From contig JAFQVV010000004.1 of the NCBI GenBank assembly GCA_017407835.1, positions 7,174 to 71,173 on the forward strand: a stretch of DNA of 64,000 bases, given 5' to 3'. A program made the translations under genes and the position numbers. The stretch is from Clostridia bacterium. Its GTDB lineage: Bacteria > Bacillota > Clostridia > Oscillospirales > CAG-272. This document shows positions 15,264 to 38,947 of the stretch, piece after piece. The notes below the pieces were generated by a model. That model saw only the letters and a list, made by a program, of their open reading frames with translations, was not told where the DNA came from and did not search any database. The first letter of the stretch is position 1. Every line of letters begins with the position of its first letter.

Positions 15264-15545
15264 TCAAATCAATTCATGCAGGCGTCGAACCAGAAGAAAG
15301 GCGAGTGCGGCAAGCGAAAGGCAAAGGACGGCGCCGGGCAGCAGTGCAATTACGCCGCTTTCAATTCCACAGATTACACCGAGCAAAAGCATAAAAACAG
15401 CAGCCGCACCGGTCAGACGCAGCATCCCTTGGACTTCGCTGCGCGCAAAGAAATCGATGATGCAGGTAAGCAGCAGAAAGAAACGATCGATCGCGGTGGG
15501 GGCAAGTTTGTTTTCTCTTGCGATATATGTCATGGTTCTATTCAT
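15264..15545 (-). CDS. hypothetical 93-aa membrane protein, divergent from the XRE/S24 repressor
   Basis: GGAGGA RBS lies 7 nt before the ATG (MNRTMTYIA). Two to three hydrophobic segments. Own consensus promoter. Confidence 0.6.
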   Translation of the reverse strand: MNRTMTYIARENKLAPTAIDRFFLLLTCIIDFFARSEVQGMLRLTGAAAVFMLLLGVICGIESGVIALLPGAVLCLSLAALAFLLVRRLHELI

Positions 15546-15587
15546 AGTTGATCCTCCGTTTTTCCGTTTTCGGAATTTTGTATTTGC

Positions 15588-15616
15588 ATTATAACACATT
15601 TTTCGACCGTTGTCAA
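15588..15616 (-). promoter_or_regulatory. sigma-A promoter of the 93-aa membrane protein gene
   Basis: On the minus strand: TTGACA, 17-nt spacer, TGtTATAAT (full consensus). Confidence 0.7.
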
Positions 15617-15636
15617 TATGTTTTTTCTGTTTTTAG

Positions 15637-15677
15637 AAATATTTTTTGATATTTTTTCGTTGGAATCAAAAATATTT
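15637..15677. repeat. AT-rich inverted repeat between the divergent promoters (candidate operator)
   Basis: AAATATTTTTTGAT (15637-15650) and ATCAAAAATATTT (15665-15677). The arms differ by one A/T in the homopolymer and are 14 nt apart. Confidence 0.5.
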
Positions 15678-15709
15678 TTCCGTTTCGGGAACTTTTTTGC
15701 AATTTCCTC

Positions 15710-15738
15710 TTTACAAATCGCCTGCGATGTGCTATACT
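15710..15738 (+). promoter_or_regulatory. sigma-A promoter of XRE/S24 repressor gene 1
   Basis: TTTACA, 17-nt spacer, TGcTATACT. Confidence 0.65.
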
Positions 15739-15772
15739 GTTATCAACAACGGAATTGAGGGGGATTTACACC

Positions 15773-16561
15773 ATGGATTACGTTTCTCGGCTGAAAGCCC
15801 GCAAGAGCGAACTGGGCATGACCAATGAACAGCTCTCGGCTGCCAGCGGTGTGCCGATGGGCACGTTGAGCAAATTGCTGGCCGGGATGAATGACTCACC
15901 CAAGCTGGGCAACTTGGCAGCGCTCTGCCGCACACTCGATTTATCGCTCGACTATGTCGTTTGGGGAAAGCCCGAGAACAAAAATAACTATTCCCTCTCT
16001 GGTGAGGAAATCGCATTGATTGAGCGCTATCGCACACTTGATCAGCGCGGACAGGATACCGTGGTTTGGACAGCACAAAAGCAGGCTGAATTTGCCGCAC
16101 TGCAGACCGACACCTCCGCCGCAGCGGACAAGCCCGAGCACCGCGCAGTGCGTCTGCAAACACCGTCTGTCAGCCGCCGCCGAACTGCACCGGCGCGCTT
16201 CCTTCCGCTCTACGATCTGCCGGTTTCAGCAGGTACAGGTGCTTATTTGGATGACACCAATGCGCGGCAAATCAACGTCCCCGCTGCCGCACCCGATGCC
16301 GACTTTCTTCTGCGCATCAGCGGTAATAGTATGGAGCCGAAATATCATGACCGCGATCTGCTCCTGGTGGAACGTACCGAACAGGTGCGTGAAGGGGAGA
16401 TCGGGATTTTCGTTCTGGACGGCGAGGGATATGTCAAGCAGTGGGGCGGCGATGCCCTCATTTCGCTCAACCCTGCGTATGCGCCTATCCCGATTACATC
16501 TGCCAGCAATTTGCAATGCTGCGGTCGTGTTGTCGGCCGCATGAAGGCCAAACGGAACTGA
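15773..16561 (+). CDS. XRE-family HTH + S24 (LexA/CI-like) peptidase-domain repressor
   Basis: N-terminal HTH is MTNEQLSAASGVPMGTLSKLLAG. C-terminal S24 elements are PVSAGTG, GNSMEP (Ser) and GYVKQW (Lys). ATG at 15773 follows GAGGGGGA. Confidence 0.85.
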   Translation: MDYVSRLKARKSELGMTNEQLSAASGVPMGTLSKLLAGMNDSPKLGNLAALCRTLDLSLDYVVWGKPENKNNYSLSGEEIALIERYRTLDQRGQDTVVWTAQKQAEFAALQTDTSAAADKPEHRAVRLQTPSVSRRRTAPARFLPLYDLPVSAGTGAYLDDTNARQINVPAAAPDADFLLRISGNSMEPKYHDRDLLLVERTEQVREGEIGIFVLDGEGYVKQWGGDALISLNPAYAPIPITSASNLQCCGRVVGRMKAKRN

Positions 16562-17496: not shown

Positions 17497-17573
17497 CCGC
17501 CTTTAGCTCAGCTGGATAGAGTACCGGATTCCGATTCCGATGGTCGCAGGTTCGAATCCTGTAGGGCGGGCCA
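17497..17573 (+). tRNA. tRNA-Arg (anticodon CCG)
   Basis: Hand-folded cloverleaf. Acceptor stem is CCGCCTT/AGGGCGG, D arm GCTC..GAGT, anticodon loop TTCCGAT (anticodon CCG), and T arm GCAGG-TTCGAAT-CCTGT. Discriminator is G and CCA is encoded. Confidence 0.9.
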
Positions 17574-26478: not shown

Positions 26479-26775
26479 CAAAATAAAACAAAAATCCCCC
26501 GTCTCGGGCAGATTGCTCTGCTCGGGACGGAGGACATACATCTTCTCCGCGGTACCACCCGCGTTCCGCTTGCATCAAGCGGCGCTCTCAGGCACATACA
26601 TGCCCTATCCGATAACGGCGGAAACCGTGGCAGCTTACTTCGAGGATTTCCTCGGTTCGGTGCCAAGCGCGGCGTAAGCCTCAAAGGGAGTTTCGGTGTG
26701 TCTTCCGCAAAGCCTCGCAGCAAACGGCTTCTCTCTGGAGCGGGACCATCAACCTACTGAATCTTTGTTGACGCT
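26479..26775 (-). promoter_or_regulatory. T-box riboswitch leader (tRNA-sensing transcription attenuator)
   Basis: On the minus-strand RNA: AGUA (26758-26755), AGAGAG (26736-26731), GAA-ACU (26694-26689), and T-box sequence AACGCGGGUGGUACCGCG (26565-26548). The terminator is an 18-position stem with 2 mismatches (26534-26517 / 26512-26495) followed by UUUUUGUUUUAUUUU. Confidence 0.85.
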
Positions 26776-26794
26776 TTGTTTGATATTATCCAAT

Positions 26795-34360: not shown

Positions 34361-34389
34361 TTGCAAAAAATCGCGGGATGTGCTATACT
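34361..34389 (+). promoter_or_regulatory. sigma-A promoter of the THUMP methyltransferase gene
   Basis: TTGCAA, 17-nt spacer, TGcTATACT. Confidence 0.65.
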
Positions 34390-34418
34390 ATAGCAAAACA
34401 CGCAAACGAGGAAATTTC

Positions 34419-35546
34419 ATGGCTATATACGATTTTGTCGCGACCTGTCTGTTCGGACTGGAAAAACTGCTTGGCGCTGAGCTTGACGCGCTTGGGGTAA
34501 CACGCACCGAAACAATGGATGGACGGGTTTATTTCCGTGCCGGCATGGATGCCATCCCGCGCTGTAATCTGCACCTGCGTACCGCAGAGCGCGTTTACCT
34601 GCTTCTCGGCCGATTCCCTGCCCGTACCTTCACCGAGCTCTTCGATGGCACAGCGGCACTGCCCTGGGCGGATTTTATCGGCGCTGACGATGCATTTCCC
34701 GTCAAAGGACACGCCATCCGCAGCACGCTCTATTCTGTCCCCGACTGCCAGAGCATCGTCAAAAAGGCGATTGTCAGCGCGCTCTCCCGCGCGTATGGGC
34801 AGCAATGGTTTGCCGAGACGGGTGTGAAATATCAGATTGAGTTTTTCCTCTTTAAGGATGAAGCGGCACTGATGATCGATACCTCAGGCGTCGCCCTGCA
34901 CAAGCGCGGTTATCGGCCTGCCGCAAACGCCGCCCCCCTGCGCGAAACGCTTGCCGCAGCGCTTGCCATGACCGCCCGACCGCGCAATGACGTGCTGTTT
35001 TGGGATCCCACCTGCGGCTCGGGAACCATTGCCATTGAGGCAGCTCTCCTGCAGAGCAAAACCGCCCCCGGGCTTGGGCGAACCTTCGCCGCAGAAGCCT
35101 ACCCGTGGATCCCCGCCGATCTTTGGGAGGATGGGCGTGATGAAGCCATCGCATCCATTGATGAAGATGCAGATTTTGCGGTGTGGGCATCCGACATTGA
35201 TCCTGCCTGCGTTGCACTGACACGCGAGAATGCACGGCGTGCGGGAATGTCGGCTTACCTCAAGGTGTTTGAAGCCGATGTACGCACCATCGAGAAGCCC
35301 GATTGCCGCGGAACGATTGTCTGCAATCCCCCCTACGGTGAGCGACTGATGACACCCGAGGAGGTTGAGCTGCTCTACCGTGCGATGGGTGAGCGCCTTG
35401 CATCATTTGCGCCGTGGCAGATTTATGTTCTGACCTCGCACGAGGGCTTTGAGCGTCTCTACGGGCGGCGTGCCGACAAAATCCGCCGTCTCTACAATGG
35501 CATAATTCCCTGCAATTTCTACCAATTTTTCAAGCCGCAGCGATAA
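34419..35546 (+). CDS. THUMP-domain class I SAM-dependent RNA methyltransferase (RlmL/YpsC-like)
   Basis: N-terminal THUMP-like region. DPTCGSGTI motif I and CNPPYGERL motif IV. Confidence 0.85.
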   Translation: MAIYDFVATCLFGLEKLLGAELDALGVTRTETMDGRVYFRAGMDAIPRCNLHLRTAERVYLLLGRFPARTFTELFDGTAALPWADFIGADDAFPVKGHAIRSTLYSVPDCQSIVKKAIVSALSRAYGQQWFAETGVKYQIEFFLFKDEAALMIDTSGVALHKRGYRPAANAAPLRETLAAALAMTARPRNDVLFWDPTCGSGTIAIEAALLQSKTAPGLGRTFAAEAYPWIPADLWEDGRDEAIASIDEDADFAVWASDIDPACVALTRENARRAGMSAYLKVFEADVRTIEKPDCRGTIVCNPPYGERLMTPEEVELLYRAMGERLASFAPWQIYVLTSHEGFERLYGRRADKIRRLYNGIIPCNFYQFFKPQR

Positions 35547-35557
35547 GCTGTGTGAAA

Positions 35558-35598
35558 TAAGAAGAGGCTGACGCAGTGCGTCAGCCTTTTCTTATTTG
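35558..35598. terminator. bidirectional hairpin terminator between convergent genes
   Basis: AGGCTGACGC-agt-GCGTCAGCCT with A-rich and T-rich flanks. Confidence 0.8.
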
Positions 35599-35765
35599 GT
35601 CATCATCGCCATGCTCTGCAGCATGCTGCCCACGGCATCCATCGTCTGTCCCGCACGACGTGTCATGCGGCGGACACGCATTTTGGGCGTACTGCGCACG
35701 GCAACTGCGCTCATCAAGAGCAGACCTCCCACAATTCCTGCGGCGGCGGCAGTTTTTCCGGTCAT
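35592..35765 (-). CDS. 57-aa single-pass membrane peptide with a basic C-terminal tail
   Basis: AAGGAGG RBS lies 7 nt before the ATG. Sequence is MTGKTAAAAGIVGGLLLMSAVAV followed by RSTPKMRVRRMTRRAG. Confidence 0.55.
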   Translation of the reverse strand: MTGKTAAAAGIVGGLLLMSAVAVRSTPKMRVRRMTRRAGQTMDAVGSMLQSMAMMTK

Positions 35766-35821
35766 GTTTATTCCTCCTTGGTTTTCGGATTCGTGGATAG
35801 TGTTGCCCGTCCCGTGTGTAT

Positions 35822-36160
35822 TTATGCATGCTCGGCCGCGCGATTTGTGCGGGCTGCGACCATGCACAGACCGCGCTGTTTCAAGCGAAATGCTGTCGCA
35901 CGGCTGATTCCCATCTGCGCGGCACAGCCTTCCACGCTCATCCCCTGCAGATAATGCAGCTCCAACAGAAGGCGCACATTGCCGATCGGCAGTTCGCGCA
36001 GCAGACGTTCAATCTCGCGCATACGCATCGTCAGCATCACACGCTCTCCGGGACGCTCCCGTCCGCTCTCCGTCTCTCGCAATGCTGTGGCTTTCAGCAT
36101 TTTTTCATATGTTCGATAAGCCGCTAACTGCTCGGCTGTTTTCTGTGCATTTCGCTCCAT
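35822..36160 (-). CDS. small sigma-70 region-4-like HTH protein (about 112 aa, mini-sigma/phage-activator-like)
   Basis: C-terminal LLLELHYLQGMSVEGCAAQMGISRATAFRLKQRG resembles sigma region 4.2. No region 2 is present. Start is uncertain (ATG 36160 or TTG 36199). Confidence 0.6.
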   Translation of the reverse strand: MERNAQKTAEQLAAYRTYEKMLKATALRETESGRERPGERVMLTMRMREIERLLRELPIGNVRLLLELHYLQGMSVEGCAAQMGISRATAFRLKQRGLCMVAARTNRAAEHA

Positions 36161-36234
36161 CTCCGATTCGCCCCCTGTCGCATCTCCGAATTTTCTCAAT
36201 CATATCGTTTTTTTTGATAAAAACAAAGTTTTCC

Positions 36235-36263
36235 TTGACTTTTTGCGCAAAATACGGTATACT
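36235..36263 (+). promoter_or_regulatory. sigma-A promoter of XRE/S24 repressor gene 2
   Basis: TTGACT, 17-nt spacer, TATACT. It fires rightwards toward 36359. Confidence 0.65.
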
Positions 36264-36285
36264 GTTTGTTGTATTCTTCGAGCAA

Positions 36286-36314
36286 ATTATATCGCATATG
36301 CGATTGTCTGTCAA
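36286..36314 (-). promoter_or_regulatory. sigma-A promoter of the sigma-like/peptide operon, face-to-face with the repressor promoter
   Basis: On the minus strand: TTGACA (36314-36309), 17-nt spacer, TATAAT (36291-36286). The spacer contains the palindrome. Confidence 0.7.
36291..36304. repeat. 14-bp perfect palindrome ATCGCATATGCGAT (candidate operator), plus an extra half-site ATCGCAT at 36323-36329
   Basis: Read directly. The palindrome overlaps the -10 and fills the spacer of the minus-strand promoter. It also lies in the 5' UTR of the repressor gene. Confidence 0.6.
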
Positions 36315-36358
36315 TAGCATATATCGCATTTCCGAAAAAATCGTGAGGTTGCCGCAAT

Positions 36359-36958
36359 ATGGATTACACCGCATTTGCCGCGTTGCTCAAAACGCACAAT
36401 ACCTCTGCCTACCGTGTGGCGCGTGCCACCGGTATCTCCCCGACCACCTTTGCCGATTGGAAAAGCGGTCGCTCCACCCCCAAGGCCGACAAACTTGCGC
36501 GCATTGCCGATTATTTTGGGCTGACCTTGGATATGATGATGGGGCGAGAGATCCCCCGCAATCCCGTCTCCGTCCCTATCATCGGTGAAATTCGTGCGGG
36601 ACAGCCCATCATTACCGATCAAACCCTGCTCGGCTATGCCGATGCATCCATCTCCCCCGCTGAAGCGGACGAGCACTTTTATCTGCGCATCCGCGGGGAC
36701 AGTATGCGCGACATCGGTATGGTTGAGGGGTCACTTGTCCTTTTTCGCAAGCAGCAGTACGCAGAAGAGGGGGAAATCGTTGCGTGTCTGGTTGGGGGGG
36801 ACAGTGCAACAGTGAAGCGCTTTCATCGCGAGGGAAAGGCGATTTTCCTGATGCCCGAGAACGAAAATTACTCCCCCATCGAGCTCTCAACCGTGGATTT
36901 CGAAACGGGAGAAGCCCGCATTCTCGGCGTTGCCCGCGAGATCAGGATCTCGCTCTGA
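36359..36958 (+). CDS. XRE-family HTH + S24 (LexA/CI-like) peptidase-domain repressor
   Basis: HTH is TSAYRVARATGISPTTFADWKSG. S24 elements are IIGEIRAGQP, GDSMRD (Ser) and ATVKRF (Lys). 199 aa. Confidence 0.85.
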   Translation: MDYTAFAALLKTHNTSAYRVARATGISPTTFADWKSGRSTPKADKLARIADYFGLTLDMMMGREIPRNPVSVPIIGEIRAGQPIITDQTLLGYADASISPAEADEHFYLRIRGDSMRDIGMVEGSLVLFRKQQYAEEGEIVACLVGGDSATVKRFHREGKAIFLMPENENYSPIELSTVDFETGEARILGVAREIRISL

Positions 36959-36997
36959 CGCACGCCATTTTCGATTGATCAAGAAAGGTAAACAACT

Positions 36998-38947
36998 ATG
37001 ACCAGCATTTCCGTCAACGACCTTTCCCTCTCCTTCGGCATCAAGCCTGTGCTCCAAAAGGTGTCTTTTTCGCTGGAAGAAGGGGACAAGCTCGGCATCA
37101 TCGGTGTCAACGGCTGCGGCAAATCCACGCTGTTTAAGCTGATTTTGGGCGAGCTTGAGCCGGATGAAGGCAATATTTTCTTTTCCAAAAACAAAACGGT
37201 AGGTGTTCTGACACAGGACGGCGCGTTCGAGGTCAGCGATCTCTGCGGCGACACGGTGCTTGAGCAGATGTTCACCGCATATCCCCAACACCTGCGCGCC
37301 GAGGCCCGTTTAGCCGAGTTGGAATCGGCACTGCACGATGAATCGCGCTCCACCGAGGAAACGATGCGGCTCTCGGGCGAATATGCCGAGCTATATCGCA
37401 AATACAGCGAGGGCGGCGGGCTGGAATTTCGTGGGCGGGCCGCCTCGATTCTGGCAAAAATGGGCTTCGATGCCGAGGCACAGCGGCAATCGGTTGAGGT
37501 ACTCTCGGGCGGTCAGCGCACACGCCTGGCGCTGGCAAAACAGCTTTGCGCCGAACCCGACATTCTGCTCCTTGACGAGCCAACCAACCATCTCGATATC
37601 GAGACGATGGGGTGGCTGGAAAATTTTTTGATTGATTATGCGGGCAATGTGCTGATCATCTCCCACGACCGCTTTTTCCTCGATCGCGTCACCAATAAGA
37701 CACTGCGCATCGAGCACTGCCGCGCCAAGCTGTACACCGGCGGATACACCCAGAGCGTTGCGCAATACGAAGAGGATCGCGCCATTCAGGAGAAGCATTA
37801 TCAGATCCAACAGAAGGAAATCGCGCGTCAGGAGGCATACATCGCTCAACAGCGGGCATGGAACCGCGAGCGCAACATCATTGCCGCCGAATCCCGCGAG
37901 AAGGCGCTTGAGCGCATGGTCAAGATTGAGAAGCCCCAAGCACCGCCCAAAGCCATCCGTATGCATTTTACGGCATCTGGGGAAAGCGGAAACGAAGTTT
38001 TGCGGGCGCGTGGGCTGTCCATGGCGTTCGGCGACCGCTCCCTCTTCTCGGGACTCGATTTTTTAATCAAAAAACGGGAGCGCGTGTTCATCGTCGGCCC
38101 AAACGGCTGCGGAAAATCAACGCTGATCAAGCTGATGCTGGATCAGCTCCTGCCGACGGAGGGGCTGATTGAATTCGGATACAATGTGGAGATCGGCTAC
38201 TACGATCAGGAAAACCAAAATCTCGAACCGACCAAGACCGTACTTGAGGAGCTGTGGTCGGCATACCCTACCCTGCCCGAACTTGAGATTCGTAACGCAC
38301 TCGCCCTCTTCCTCTTTCGCGGCGATGATATTGAGAAAACGGTATCGGTGCTCTCGGGGGGTGAGCGGGCCCGGCTGACGCTGGCAAAGCTCATTCTCTC
38401 CCGCATGAACCTGCTTATCCTCGACGAGCCGACCAACCACCTTGACATCAATTCCCGTGAGGCACTGGAAGCGGCACTTGAGGGGTTCGACGGAACGCTC
38501 ATCACCGTCTCCCACGACCGTTATCTCATCGACAAGCTGGCAACCCGCATTCTGGCACTCTCCCCGGGCGAGGCAATGGGGGGAGGAGATCTCTACGACT
38601 ATCGCGTCACACATGAGGGGCAGGGCTACAGCGAGCTGCGAGAGTTGATGGCGGAGCGTGAAGCGCTCTACGCCGCGGCACGCGCCGATCTGCCCGAAAC
38701 AGAGACAAACGGCGGTCGTGAGCAATATCTGCAGCAGAAGAAATCGCGCAACGATGATCGAAAAGAGAAAAAGCGCAGAGAAGCTATGGCGCGTGAGCAG
38801 ATCAAGCTTGAAGCTGAGCTGGAGGCACTGGAGAAGGAGCTGTACGGCGAGGCGGCAACCGACTATGTCCGCGCCGCCGAGATCGATGCCCGCAAGGCGG
38901 AGGTCGAGGAGCGGCTGATGGAAATTTACGAGGTGCTTGAAGGGTAA
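36998..38947 (+). CDS. ABC-F family ATPase (two ABC cassettes, no TM domain, coiled-coil C-terminus)
   Basis: Walker A appears twice (GVNGCGKST, GPNGCGKST) and the signature twice (LSGGQRTR, LSGGERAR). K/E-rich C-terminal tail. Confidence 0.9.
   Translation: MTSISVNDLSLSFGIKPVLQKVSFSLEEGDKLGIIGVNGCGKSTLFKLILGELEPDEGNIFFSKNKTVGVLTQDGAFEVSDLCGDTVLEQMFTAYPQHLRAEARLAELESALHDESRSTEETMRLSGEYAELYRKYSEGGGLEFRGRAASILAKMGFDAEAQRQSVEVLSGGQRTRLALAKQLCAEPDILLLDEPTNHLDIETMGWLENFLIDYAGNVLIISHDRFFLDRVTNKTLRIEHCRAKLYTGGYTQSVAQYEEDRAIQEKHYQIQQKEIARQEAYIAQQRAWNRERNIIAAESREKALERMVKIEKPQAPPKAIRMHFTASGESGNEVLRARGLSMAFGDRSLFSGLDFLIKKRERVFIVGPNGCGKSTLIKLMLDQLLPTEGLIEFGYNVEIGYYDQENQNLEPTKTVLEELWSAYPTLPELEIRNALALFLFRGDDIEKTVSVLSGGERARLTLAKLILSRMNLLILDEPTNHLDINSREALEAALEGFDGTLITVSHDRYLIDKLATRILALSPGEAMGGGDLYDYRVTHEGQGYSELRELMAEREALYAAARADLPETETNGGREQYLQQKKSRNDDRKEKKRREAMAREQIKLEAELEALEKELYGEAATDYVRAAEIDARKAEVEERLMEIYEVLEG

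Follow-up and report, generated by a model that had tools for sequence, protein, structure and literature searches.

The locus described here lies in a window of 64 kb, a 64,000-nucleotide stretch of contig JAFQVV010000004.1 (assembly GCA_017407835.1) from a bacterium of the class Clostridia, and its coordinates follow the numbering of that whole window. The list of open reading frames (ORFs) and the raw sequence place five genes within 34380–38947 (Table 1). In the middle, a repressor with an XRE-type helix-turn-helix (HTH) domain and an S24 peptidase domain is encoded on the plus strand and faces a minus-strand pair of genes, for a 112-residue protein containing sigma region 4 (here called mini-sigma) and for a 57-residue peptide. 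Outside this trio lie genes for an RlmL-like THUMP methyltransferase and for a Uup-like ABC-F ATPase. For the trio the genome annotation goes no further than 'helix-turn-helix domain-containing', 'sigma-70 family' and 'hypothetical'. Comparison of the sequence with its relatives suggests that the locus is a genuine regulatory switch that is conserved among uncultured gut Clostridia and has apparently gone undescribed. The repressor, mini-sigma and peptide genes are all under purifying selection, with synonymous divergence (dS) saturated, and the GC content is flat over the locus with no anomaly.

The repressor matches Pfam Peptidase_S24 (1.6e-24) and HTH_3 (6.6e-8), with HTH_26 also detected, and its best match among the PHROG families is phrog_4 'transcriptional repressor' (3.4e-29). 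Alignment to the E. coli LexA structure puts the cleavage bond at A80–G81 (IRAGQP), the nucleophile at S115 (GDSM) and the general base at K153 (VKR); we take the LexA counterparts to be A84–G85, S119 and K156. A80, G81, S115 and K153 are invariant among eight orthologs (60–85% identical), the recognition helix is conserved among the orthologs and the ratio of non-synonymous to synonymous divergence (dN/dS) is 0.05–0.10. The domains, cleavage site and Ser/Lys dyad listed for this protein in a preliminary description of the DNA are all present, and the protein is predicted to be cleavage-competent. The other sequence features of that description likewise lie at the coordinates it gives. The TIGR00498 lexA model aligned only over positions 79–202 and scored 100 bits, below its cut-off of 110.95, and the N-terminus of the repressor is of the XRE/CI type and not the winged-helix DNA-binding domain of LexA. 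No Firmicute SOS box (CGAAC-N4-GTTCG) is found in the intergenic region; the single one-mismatch SOS-box match in the window falls inside the mini-sigma coding sequence, at chance level. On these three grounds (sub-threshold lexA model, XRE N-terminus, no intergenic SOS box) a canonical LexA or a Cheo box was rejected. By its sequence the repressor instead belongs with the phage-type HTH-S24 chromosomal regulators of the CI/HdiR type, among which are HdiR, IrvR, PrlP and the Bacteroidetes regulators (PMC8565304, PMC7101444, PMC12273997). HdiR is a RecA-dependent member of this group, while the self-cleavage of IrvR is RecA-independent (PMC7101444) and that of PrlP, which does not need RecA either, is set off by acid, oxidative, osmotic and heat stress (PMC12273997). 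Because IrvR and PrlP cleave themselves without needing RecA, RecA/SOS is for the present repressor no more than the most likely input, other stress being possible, and the SOS dependence suggested in the preliminary description was an assumption.

That description also saw in the 112-residue protein sigma-70 region 4 alone. Region 4 itself is borne out by Pfam Sigma70_r4_2 (1.5e-7; 31.4 bits against a cut-off of 25.7) and by structure. In the AlphaFold2 (AF2) model, built from a 41-sequence alignment with a predicted local distance difference test score (pLDDT) of 95, a hairpin (residues 2–32 and 37–55) is followed by three helices, and residues 61–111 form a sigma region-4-type HTH. A structure search of the PDB matched only the last 55–60 residues, to SigD4, SigE r4 and SigR r4, with a root-mean-square deviation of 1.5–1.9 Å to the sigma4 domains and template-modelling (TM) scores of 0.6–0.8 on the target; the best sequence match among solved structures is the sigma4-like YlxM/UPF0122. 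The word 'alone' does not hold, as the protein carries the extra N-terminal helical hairpin and its whole fold is of the phage late-activator type. Among the predicted viral structures of BFVD it is matched over its full length, the best two entries being phage proteins of 122–124 residues (query TM score, TMq, 0.74–0.79); further matches of up to about 145 residues, at lower TM score, bear annotations as Sigma70, as Sigma-70 region 4, as DUF1492 or as transcriptional activator. There is no Sigma70_r2 match, the extracytoplasmic-function (ECF) sigma models align just at their C-terminal third, and the AF2 model contains no region 2. All 53 relatives found are 88–178 residues long. The candidate role of sigma factor was rejected on the missing region 2 and on a full fold that is that of small phage activator proteins.

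The mini-sigma scores 20.9 bits against Pfam DUF1492 (gathering score 21.5) and matches PHROG 36 (2.1e-9) and PHROG 248 'transcriptional activator', its PHROG matches being regulators or activators. Its weakest sequence relatives, L024 and L026, stand directly upstream of terS in phage contigs. The Ltr superfamily of Gram-positive phage late-gene activators comprises LtrA (Sigma70_r4), LtrB (DUF1492), RinA, ArpU and LtrC; these activators are encoded directly upstream of terS and are expressed only once the phage repressor has been removed (PMC3753634). Since the fold, the PHROG matches and the terS-adjacent relatives all match the description of LtrA/LtrB, we read mini-sigma as an Ltr-type DNA-binding regulator and not a sigma factor. 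Both are small (about 100–145 residues) with a C-terminal sigma region-4-like HTH, and the viral members match the whole fold. Unlike the phage activators, mini-sigma is chromosomal, with no terminase nearby in the window or in the neighbours called and no late operon; it has an ABC-F partner and, in some lineages, a membrane peptide or Cys-rich ORF, it is predicted to be under the direct control of the repressor, and its DUF1492 score falls slightly short of the Pfam cut-off. Its orthologs are 43–65% identical, less conserved than those of the peptide. When 50,697 phage records were searched by tblastn for mini-sigma and the peptide, nothing was returned, and IMG/VR yielded two mini-sigma relatives at 34% identity and no peptide relative.

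The locus was compared with relatives from two directions. A first round took the contexts of mini-sigma homologues, numbered as L loci. L001–L012 have the same trio with the same flanks, for which reason the locus is not a prophage edge; the earlier reading is upheld on this point by the identical flanks in relatives with saturated synonymous divergence, by the flat GC content and by the absence of phage-database matches. A sub-lineage, L013–L016, has no repressor and keeps both promoters, mini-sigma and the peptide, and here the rightward promoter stands directly before ABC-F. Scanning a genome collection with strict mini-sigma patterns gave three species only, an underestimate of the spread that the repressor side then revealed. 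From that side, a metagenome scan with the repressor alignment found 80 loci, many from human gut, of which 52 are full or near full length at 50–66% identity. Linkage was counted in the 36 loci with at least 800 nt of upstream sequence and the 36 with at least 400 nt downstream. A divergent mini-sigma homologue lies within 900 nt of the repressor in all 36 of the former, and ABC-F follows on the same strand in 33 of the latter.

A promoter scan of 35300–37200, with hexamers scored out of 12, returns exactly the two face-to-face consensus promoters that had been named before, P_rep for the repressor and ABC-F and P_sig for mini-sigma and the peptide, with predicted starts about 10 bp apart. 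The pair is present in 36 of 41 distinct metagenome upstream regions; among these 36, P_sig scores 12/12 in 32 and the repressor promoter 12/12 in 26. P_sig also scores 12/12 in nine of ten first-round loci. The gap from −10 to −10 is 22 nt in the window and 10–41 nt in the first-round loci; in the metagenome regions it is 13–16 nt in 30 cases and 49–57 nt in six. In all variants each promoter sits within the transcribed region of the other. The perfect TTGACA-17-TATAAT form occurs six times in the window, against none expected from shuffled sequence, and with perfect promoters so common P_sig is real yet unexceptional when taken alone. The five other perfect sites are at 15588, 17613, 28290, 57643 and 63866; the organism uses textbook sigma-A promoters unusually often.

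Around P_sig lie the putative operators. The perfect palindrome to which this role had been ascribed (O1) is exactly where it was reported, and the ascription is backed by its fixed position in relatives. The motif ATCGCAT at 36323–36329 is likewise present; having been taken for a further half-site, it turns out to belong to a full 14-bp operator (O2). A third site (O3), which the preliminary description overlooked, is a probable operator with weaker support than O1 and O2: it has two mismatches to the family consensus, TTCG[CG]AwwT[GC]CGAA, and comparable sites occur in the mini-sigma 5′ untranslated region (UTR) of L001, L011 and L005. With one mismatch or fewer allowed to the degenerate consensus, O1 and O2 are the sole matches in the window; a global operator regulon is unsupported, as the consensus matches only this locus within those 64 kb. 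An operator at the O1 offset (+5 from the P_sig −10 hexamer) is found in 24 metagenome regions as well as in L001, L011, L018 and L019, and one at the O2 offset (+36 or +37) in 23 metagenome regions. In the window O1 and O2 have exactly these offsets, and the O1–O2 spacing of 31–32 bp is conserved. The conserved operator sequence is paired with the conserved recognition helix of the repressor. The switch region has operators in all seven first-round loci with a repressor gene, and none at up to two mismatches in three repressor-less first-round loci (L013, L016 and L017). Of the sub-lineage L013–L016, two loci were examined, L013 (2680–3500) and L016; they have lost the operators and keep the facing promoters with a 41-nt gap. 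These palindromes overlap the promoter that would be their target, a feature of CI/HdiR-type repressors, and accompany the repressor gene in presence and absence. The transcript of repressor and ABC-F has both O1 and O2 in its 5′ UTR.

Table 1. Features of the locus in window coordinates; the Cys-rich ORFs of the last four lines are placed within the named related loci.
Feature	Position	Strand	Details
RlmL-like THUMP methyltransferase gene	34380–35546	+	388 aa for the longest ORF; probable start 34419, 375 aa
Predicted bidirectional intrinsic terminator	35555–35597		21-nt inverted repeat, 95% complementary, T-runs on both strands
Peptide gene	35592–35765	−	57 aa
Intercistronic motif, GCATAA-N14-GGCAACACTAT	35797–35827	−	Non-coding, between mini-sigma stop and peptide start
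Mini-sigma gene	35822–36160	−	112 aa counted from ATG
Probable third operator O3, GTCGCATCTCCGAA	36177–36190		Mini-sigma 5′ UTR, upstream of the repressor promoter
Repressor–ABC-F promoter P_rep, TTGACT-17-TATACT	36235–36263	+	10/12; predicted start ~36270
Mini-sigma/peptide promoter P_sig, TTGACA-17-TATAAT	36286–36314 (36314–36286)	−	12/12; predicted start ~36279
Putative operator O1, perfect palindrome ATCGCATATGCGAT	36291–36304		−10-proximal spacer of P_sig, touching the −10
Putative operator O2, ATCGCATTTCCGAA	36323–36336		Directly upstream of the P_sig −35; 32 bp centre to centre from O1
Repressor gene (XRE-HTH + S24)	36359–36958	+	199 aa
ABC-F ATPase gene	36998–38947	+	649 aa, Uup-like architecture, C-terminal coiled coil
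Cys-rich ORF, L017	4701–4967		
Cys-rich ORF, L018	4707–4943		Within a listed ORF
Cys-rich ORF, L019	4765–5004		
Cys-rich ORF, L020	4820–5047		

The ABC-F gene had been regarded as a housekeeping flank. It is instead a member of the unit, standing directly downstream of the repressor in the window and downstream of it in 33 of the 36 metagenome loci counted. Its product scores 458 bits with the NCBIfam ABC-F family model, above cut-off, and the Uup model aligns over the full length, below cut-off. The gap between repressor and ABC-F is 39 nt in the window. The two genes are adjacent on the same strand in L001, L018–L020 and L025, with gaps of 34 nt in L001 and of −4 to 15 nt in the others. Even where mini-sigma has diverged to about 30% identity (L017–L020, L025), ABC-F is always its divergent neighbour. 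The scan of 35300–37200 found no promoter-like or terminator-like site from the repressor start to the ABC-F start. The short gaps, the common strand and the lack of any scanned site between them indicate that repressor and ABC-F probably form one operon.

The peptide gene described earlier, with its strong ribosome-binding site (AAGGAGG, 35773–35779, 7 nt from the ATG), is present at the reported place. The low dN/dS of 0.07–0.18 at saturated synonymous sites (proportion of synonymous differences, pS, about 0.65) argues that it is a real gene; its orthologs are 67–84% identical. In the AF2 model (pLDDT 73) the peptide consists of two helices. Helix 1 (residues 2–24) is hydrophobic, with a mean Kyte–Doolittle value of about 2.2 by hand calculation, and is followed by an invariant Pro27. 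Helix 2 (residues 27–56) is Arg-rich, Met-rich and amphipathic. Seven Arg or Lys residues fall within the 14 residues after helix 1, and the positive-inside rule predicts a cytoplasmic C-terminus. We note that helix 2 has seven Met in 30 residues and that the Met/Arg-rich composition is conserved in the orthologs. An exhaustive profile search of 1.84 billion representative proteins gave eight peptide relatives only, of 55–75 residues. One distant homologue is again behind a mini-sigma gene (L027) and another stands alone, without mini-sigma. The peptide has no Pfam or NCBIfam match, belongs to no holin or toxin family searched and found nothing in the phage records or IMG/VR; its one PHROG match, of unknown function, is insignificant (E 0.043). 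An analogy had been drawn with UviA/UviB and TcdR/TcdE, in which a damage-linked regulator with sigma homology likewise lies beside a small membrane protein. It fails twice: mini-sigma lacks region 2, which both UviA and TcdR possess as complete sigma factors, and the peptide has neither a holin-family match nor a Pfam family. The locus also has no toxin or bacteriocin gene.

In distant lineages a different small ORF takes the place of the peptide and is found upstream of mini-sigma; it is of about 55–90 residues, starting MCxICxxxxCPxxCP and often with a second CxxC pair. Besides the four loci in Table 1, it occurs in L036, L044, L057, L061, L063 and L064, the last of which carries the peptide too. 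This Cys-rich protein may be a metal- or redox-sensing partner. Purifying selection is clear for this small protein as for the peptide, and both are uncharacterised. Across 31 distinct related loci the peptide is present in about eight and the Cys-rich ORF in about seven; one has both, and 11 showed neither. The constant set consists of the repressor and the operators, ABC-F, mini-sigma and the promoter pair, while the peptide is an accessory of particular lineages. The view that a small membrane peptide is the only output of the switch cannot be maintained with these counts, set against mini-sigma in every metagenome locus counted. The trio is a conserved neighbourhood in L001–L012 with their common flanks; from most related loci the peptide is absent.

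The preliminary description also overlooked a conserved motif, unique in the window, in the stretch that separates the stop codon of mini-sigma from the start of the peptide gene. GCATAA and GG[CT][AG]A[CA]ACTA are invariant in six loci, in two of which GCATAA is off the stop codon. No conserved RNA structure was found in the motif by RNAalifold (three trivial pairs). Its candidate roles are those of an internal promoter and of a site bound by mini-sigma.

The gene content, the cleavage residues, the promoter geometry and the positions and conservation of the operators are observed directly, and from them we infer repressor binding, an inducing signal, transcriptional interference and targets for mini-sigma and the peptide as follows. 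P_rep would drive the XRE-HTH/S24 repressor and then the ABC-F ATPase in a rightward operon; P_sig would drive, leftward, the sigma-region-4 protein of the Ltr kind and, in this lineage, the membrane-anchored peptide. Polymerase on one of the facing promoters would exclude polymerase from the other, and each transcript would run through the opposite promoter. In the repressed state, repressor dimers on O1 and O2, three helical turns apart, and probably on O3, would shut P_sig. As O1 and O2 occupy roughly positions +21 to +66 of the repressor transcript, the same dimers could dampen or partly roadblock the repressor's own operon. Induction would follow when self-cleavage at A80–G81 removes the repressor, the likeliest trigger being RecA filaments after DNA damage, with other stress possible. 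The freed P_sig would then outcompete the weaker P_rep of the window, and occlusion together with collision would lower repressor and ABC-F transcription. Mini-sigma would next act as a transcription regulator, perhaps, and this is speculative, on the motif that follows the mini-sigma gene, or else by feeding back on the switch region; Ltr activators work on a promoter directly downstream of their own gene.

A chromosomally fixed, phage-derived two-operon switch is the reading we favour, and we consider it probable, if by no wide measure certain. Several points weigh against it. Repressor binding, cleavage and both transcription starts are predictions, and by analogy with IrvR and PrlP, RecA dependence does not follow from the S24 fold. 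Most related loci have gaps of 13–16 nt, so that the transcripts barely overlap and occlusion is likelier than collision. The intercistronic motif is a poor match to −10 and −35 elements. In L013–L016 a perfect P_sig without operators suggests that mini-sigma and the peptide are probably expressed constitutively, and constitutive P_sig in repressor-less lineages speaks against a toxic or strictly damage-specific output. A fuller version of the favoured reading, in which an ancient phage immunity switch, domesticated as a host circuit of gut Clostridia, toggles between the Uup-like ABC-F with the self-cleaving repressor and the sigma4-type regulator with lineage-specific small partners (the Met/Arg-rich membrane peptide here; the Cys-rich, possibly metal-binding protein elsewhere), is offered tentatively, as a possible but doubtful account. 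If true, it would link DNA damage or other stress directly to the control of translation factors, and sigma4 regulators gated by membrane or metal would form a new class.

The phage ancestry of the parts raises the question of whether the locus is simply the decaying remnant of a prophage or an integrative and conjugative element, a CI-like repressor, a late activator and a holin-like peptide left without host function beside unrelated housekeeping genes. The phrog_4 assignment of the repressor, the regulator/activator PHROGs and viral whole-fold matches of mini-sigma, and the distant mini-sigma relatives upstream of terS in phages are what such a remnant would leave. The same chromosomal context is nevertheless kept over lineages in which synonymous divergence is saturated and dN/dS is low, repressor and mini-sigma are linked in every metagenome locus counted, no integrase, terminase or structural gene occurs among the neighbours called, the GC content is flat and the tblastn search of phage records was empty. 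Conserved synteny and purifying selection led us to reject an inert remnant, and we regard this explanation as very improbable. In another rival account the peptide is the point of the locus, the repressor being a local LexA analogue, the peptide a damage-induced division inhibitor or membrane growth brake like YneA, SosA, SidA or TisB, and mini-sigma a mere amplifier. Gram-positive single-transmembrane division inhibitors are mutually dissimilar and typically divergent from lexA (PMC6851548), and the hydrophobic helix and very conserved tail of the peptide, its low dN/dS and the conserved motif directly upstream of its gene would all suit such a role. Most related loci, however, keep the whole switch without the peptide; the repressor-less lineages retain it behind an operator-free perfect promoter, which would be odd for a potent inhibitor; and its C-terminus is predicted to be cytoplasmic, whereas SosA's C-terminal portion is extracellular (PMC6851548). 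We judge a checkpoint of this sort to be distinctly unlikely.

The small ORFs might alternatively act on mini-sigma itself, the peptide as a membrane-tethered partner, or the Cys-rich protein as a zinc-binding one, sequestering or modulating it in the manner of an anti-sigma factor with region 4, while the switch, taken as bistable, mainly tunes ABC-F and mini-sigma serves as a second regulator like Cro, Cox or Apl on the common control region. The pairing of mini-sigma with the peptide reaches as far as the distant homologue L027, other lineages place the Cys-rich ORF before mini-sigma, the ABC-F linkage is near-universal, and the PDB neighbours of the mini-sigma sigma4 domain are mostly sigma4/anti-sigma complexes. 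The proposal also draws on the P2/186-type switches, in which a repressor and a small HTH antagonist are set across face-to-face promoters. About one-third of the distinct loci, though, have neither partner ORF, one distant peptide homologue stands by itself, and the intergenic region yielded no binding site for mini-sigma. An obligate sigma/anti-sigma pair is weakened by the first two of these points, and the proposal as a whole appears unlikely to us.

P2/186 switches resemble the locus in having two strong promoters that face each other over a short interval, with repressor operators overlapping one of them, so that interference or occlusion is built in. To our knowledge their repressors are not XRE and S24 proteins of the family found here. 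The locus further differs in that its −10 hexamers are only 13–22 nt apart in most loci (29–57 nt in the rest), which makes occlusion likelier than collision, and in carrying no phage cargo. The closest counterparts of the repressor by architecture are HdiR of Lactococcus/Streptococcus, IrvR of S. mutans, PrlP of S. suis and the Bacteroidetes non-canonical LexA, all of which combine a CI-like HTH with an S24 domain, an Ala-Gly bond and Ser/Lys residues (PMC8565304, PMC7101444, PMC12273997). Like the repressor of the locus they are chromosomal, act locally and have phage ancestry; unlike it, none is reported with an operonic ABC-F, a sigma4-type direct target or conserved facing consensus promoters. 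The PrlP motif CCTGAAWCT differs from the operator consensus of the locus, and the likeness is one of architecture that does not imply orthology. YneA, SosA and ChiZ (and SidA/DidA) share with the locus a small single-transmembrane protein divergent from an S24 repressor gene and under its operators (PMC6851548, PMC4211646). The peptide differs from YneA and SosA in being the second gene after a regulator, in its predicted cytoplasmic C-terminus and in its absence from most loci of the module.

In the literature, no description was found of an HTH-S24 repressor linked to an ABC-F or sigma4 protein. The components all belong to known kinds, and the apparent novelty lies in the fixed HTH-S24/ABC-F operon facing an Ltr-type regulator over a conserved promoter pair with operators, and its wide occurrence in uncultured gut Clostridia appears unreported. 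Phage-type S24 repressors are already known as recruits for small host regulons, as with HdiR, IrvR, PrlP and the Bacteroidetes LexA. Here an entire switch, with repressor, operators, facing promoters and a regulator of late-activator type, is fixed in the chromosome over deep divergence. About 200 bp of control DNA with natural gaps of 10–57 nt makes a compact system for setting occlusion against convergent interference, and the repressor-less, operator-less lineages provide natural controls. The locus could show how uncultured gut Clostridia couple stress to the expression of a translation factor.

The remaining features concern the edges of the locus and the rest of the window. The element between the peptide gene and the convergent RlmL-like gene, overlooked in the preliminary description, is a predicted terminator that would close both the peptide operon and the RlmL-like gene; the terminator scan places a minus-strand stem within it, at 35587–35565. 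The module has the RlmL-like methyltransferase gene on one side and the gene for the Uup-like ABC-F on the other. As rlmL and uup are neighbours in E. coli too, the switch may be an insertion into an old rlmL–uup pair. Searches with the PADLOC defence models gave no match for mini-sigma or the peptide, a marginal HTH match for the repressor and only generic ATPase matches for ABC-F, and a known anti-phage defence system was rejected on this result. Rfam identified no known RNA element in the UTRs of the locus; across the window its only matches are a T-box leader at 26520–26780 on the minus strand (93.3 bits) and a tRNA gene at 17497–17570 on the plus strand.

A second XRE-HTH and S24-like gene is located at about 15755–16561 on the plus strand. 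It was matched by tblastn with E. coli LexA (E 2e-8) and contains 'VSAGTG', 'GNSM' and 'VKQW'. It faces a hydrophobic ORF of about 93–111 residues (15264–15599, minus strand), and a perfect TTGACA-17-TATAAT promoter at 15588–15616 on the minus strand sits at the upstream end of that ORF. The arrangement at 15264–16561 is of the same design as the main locus.

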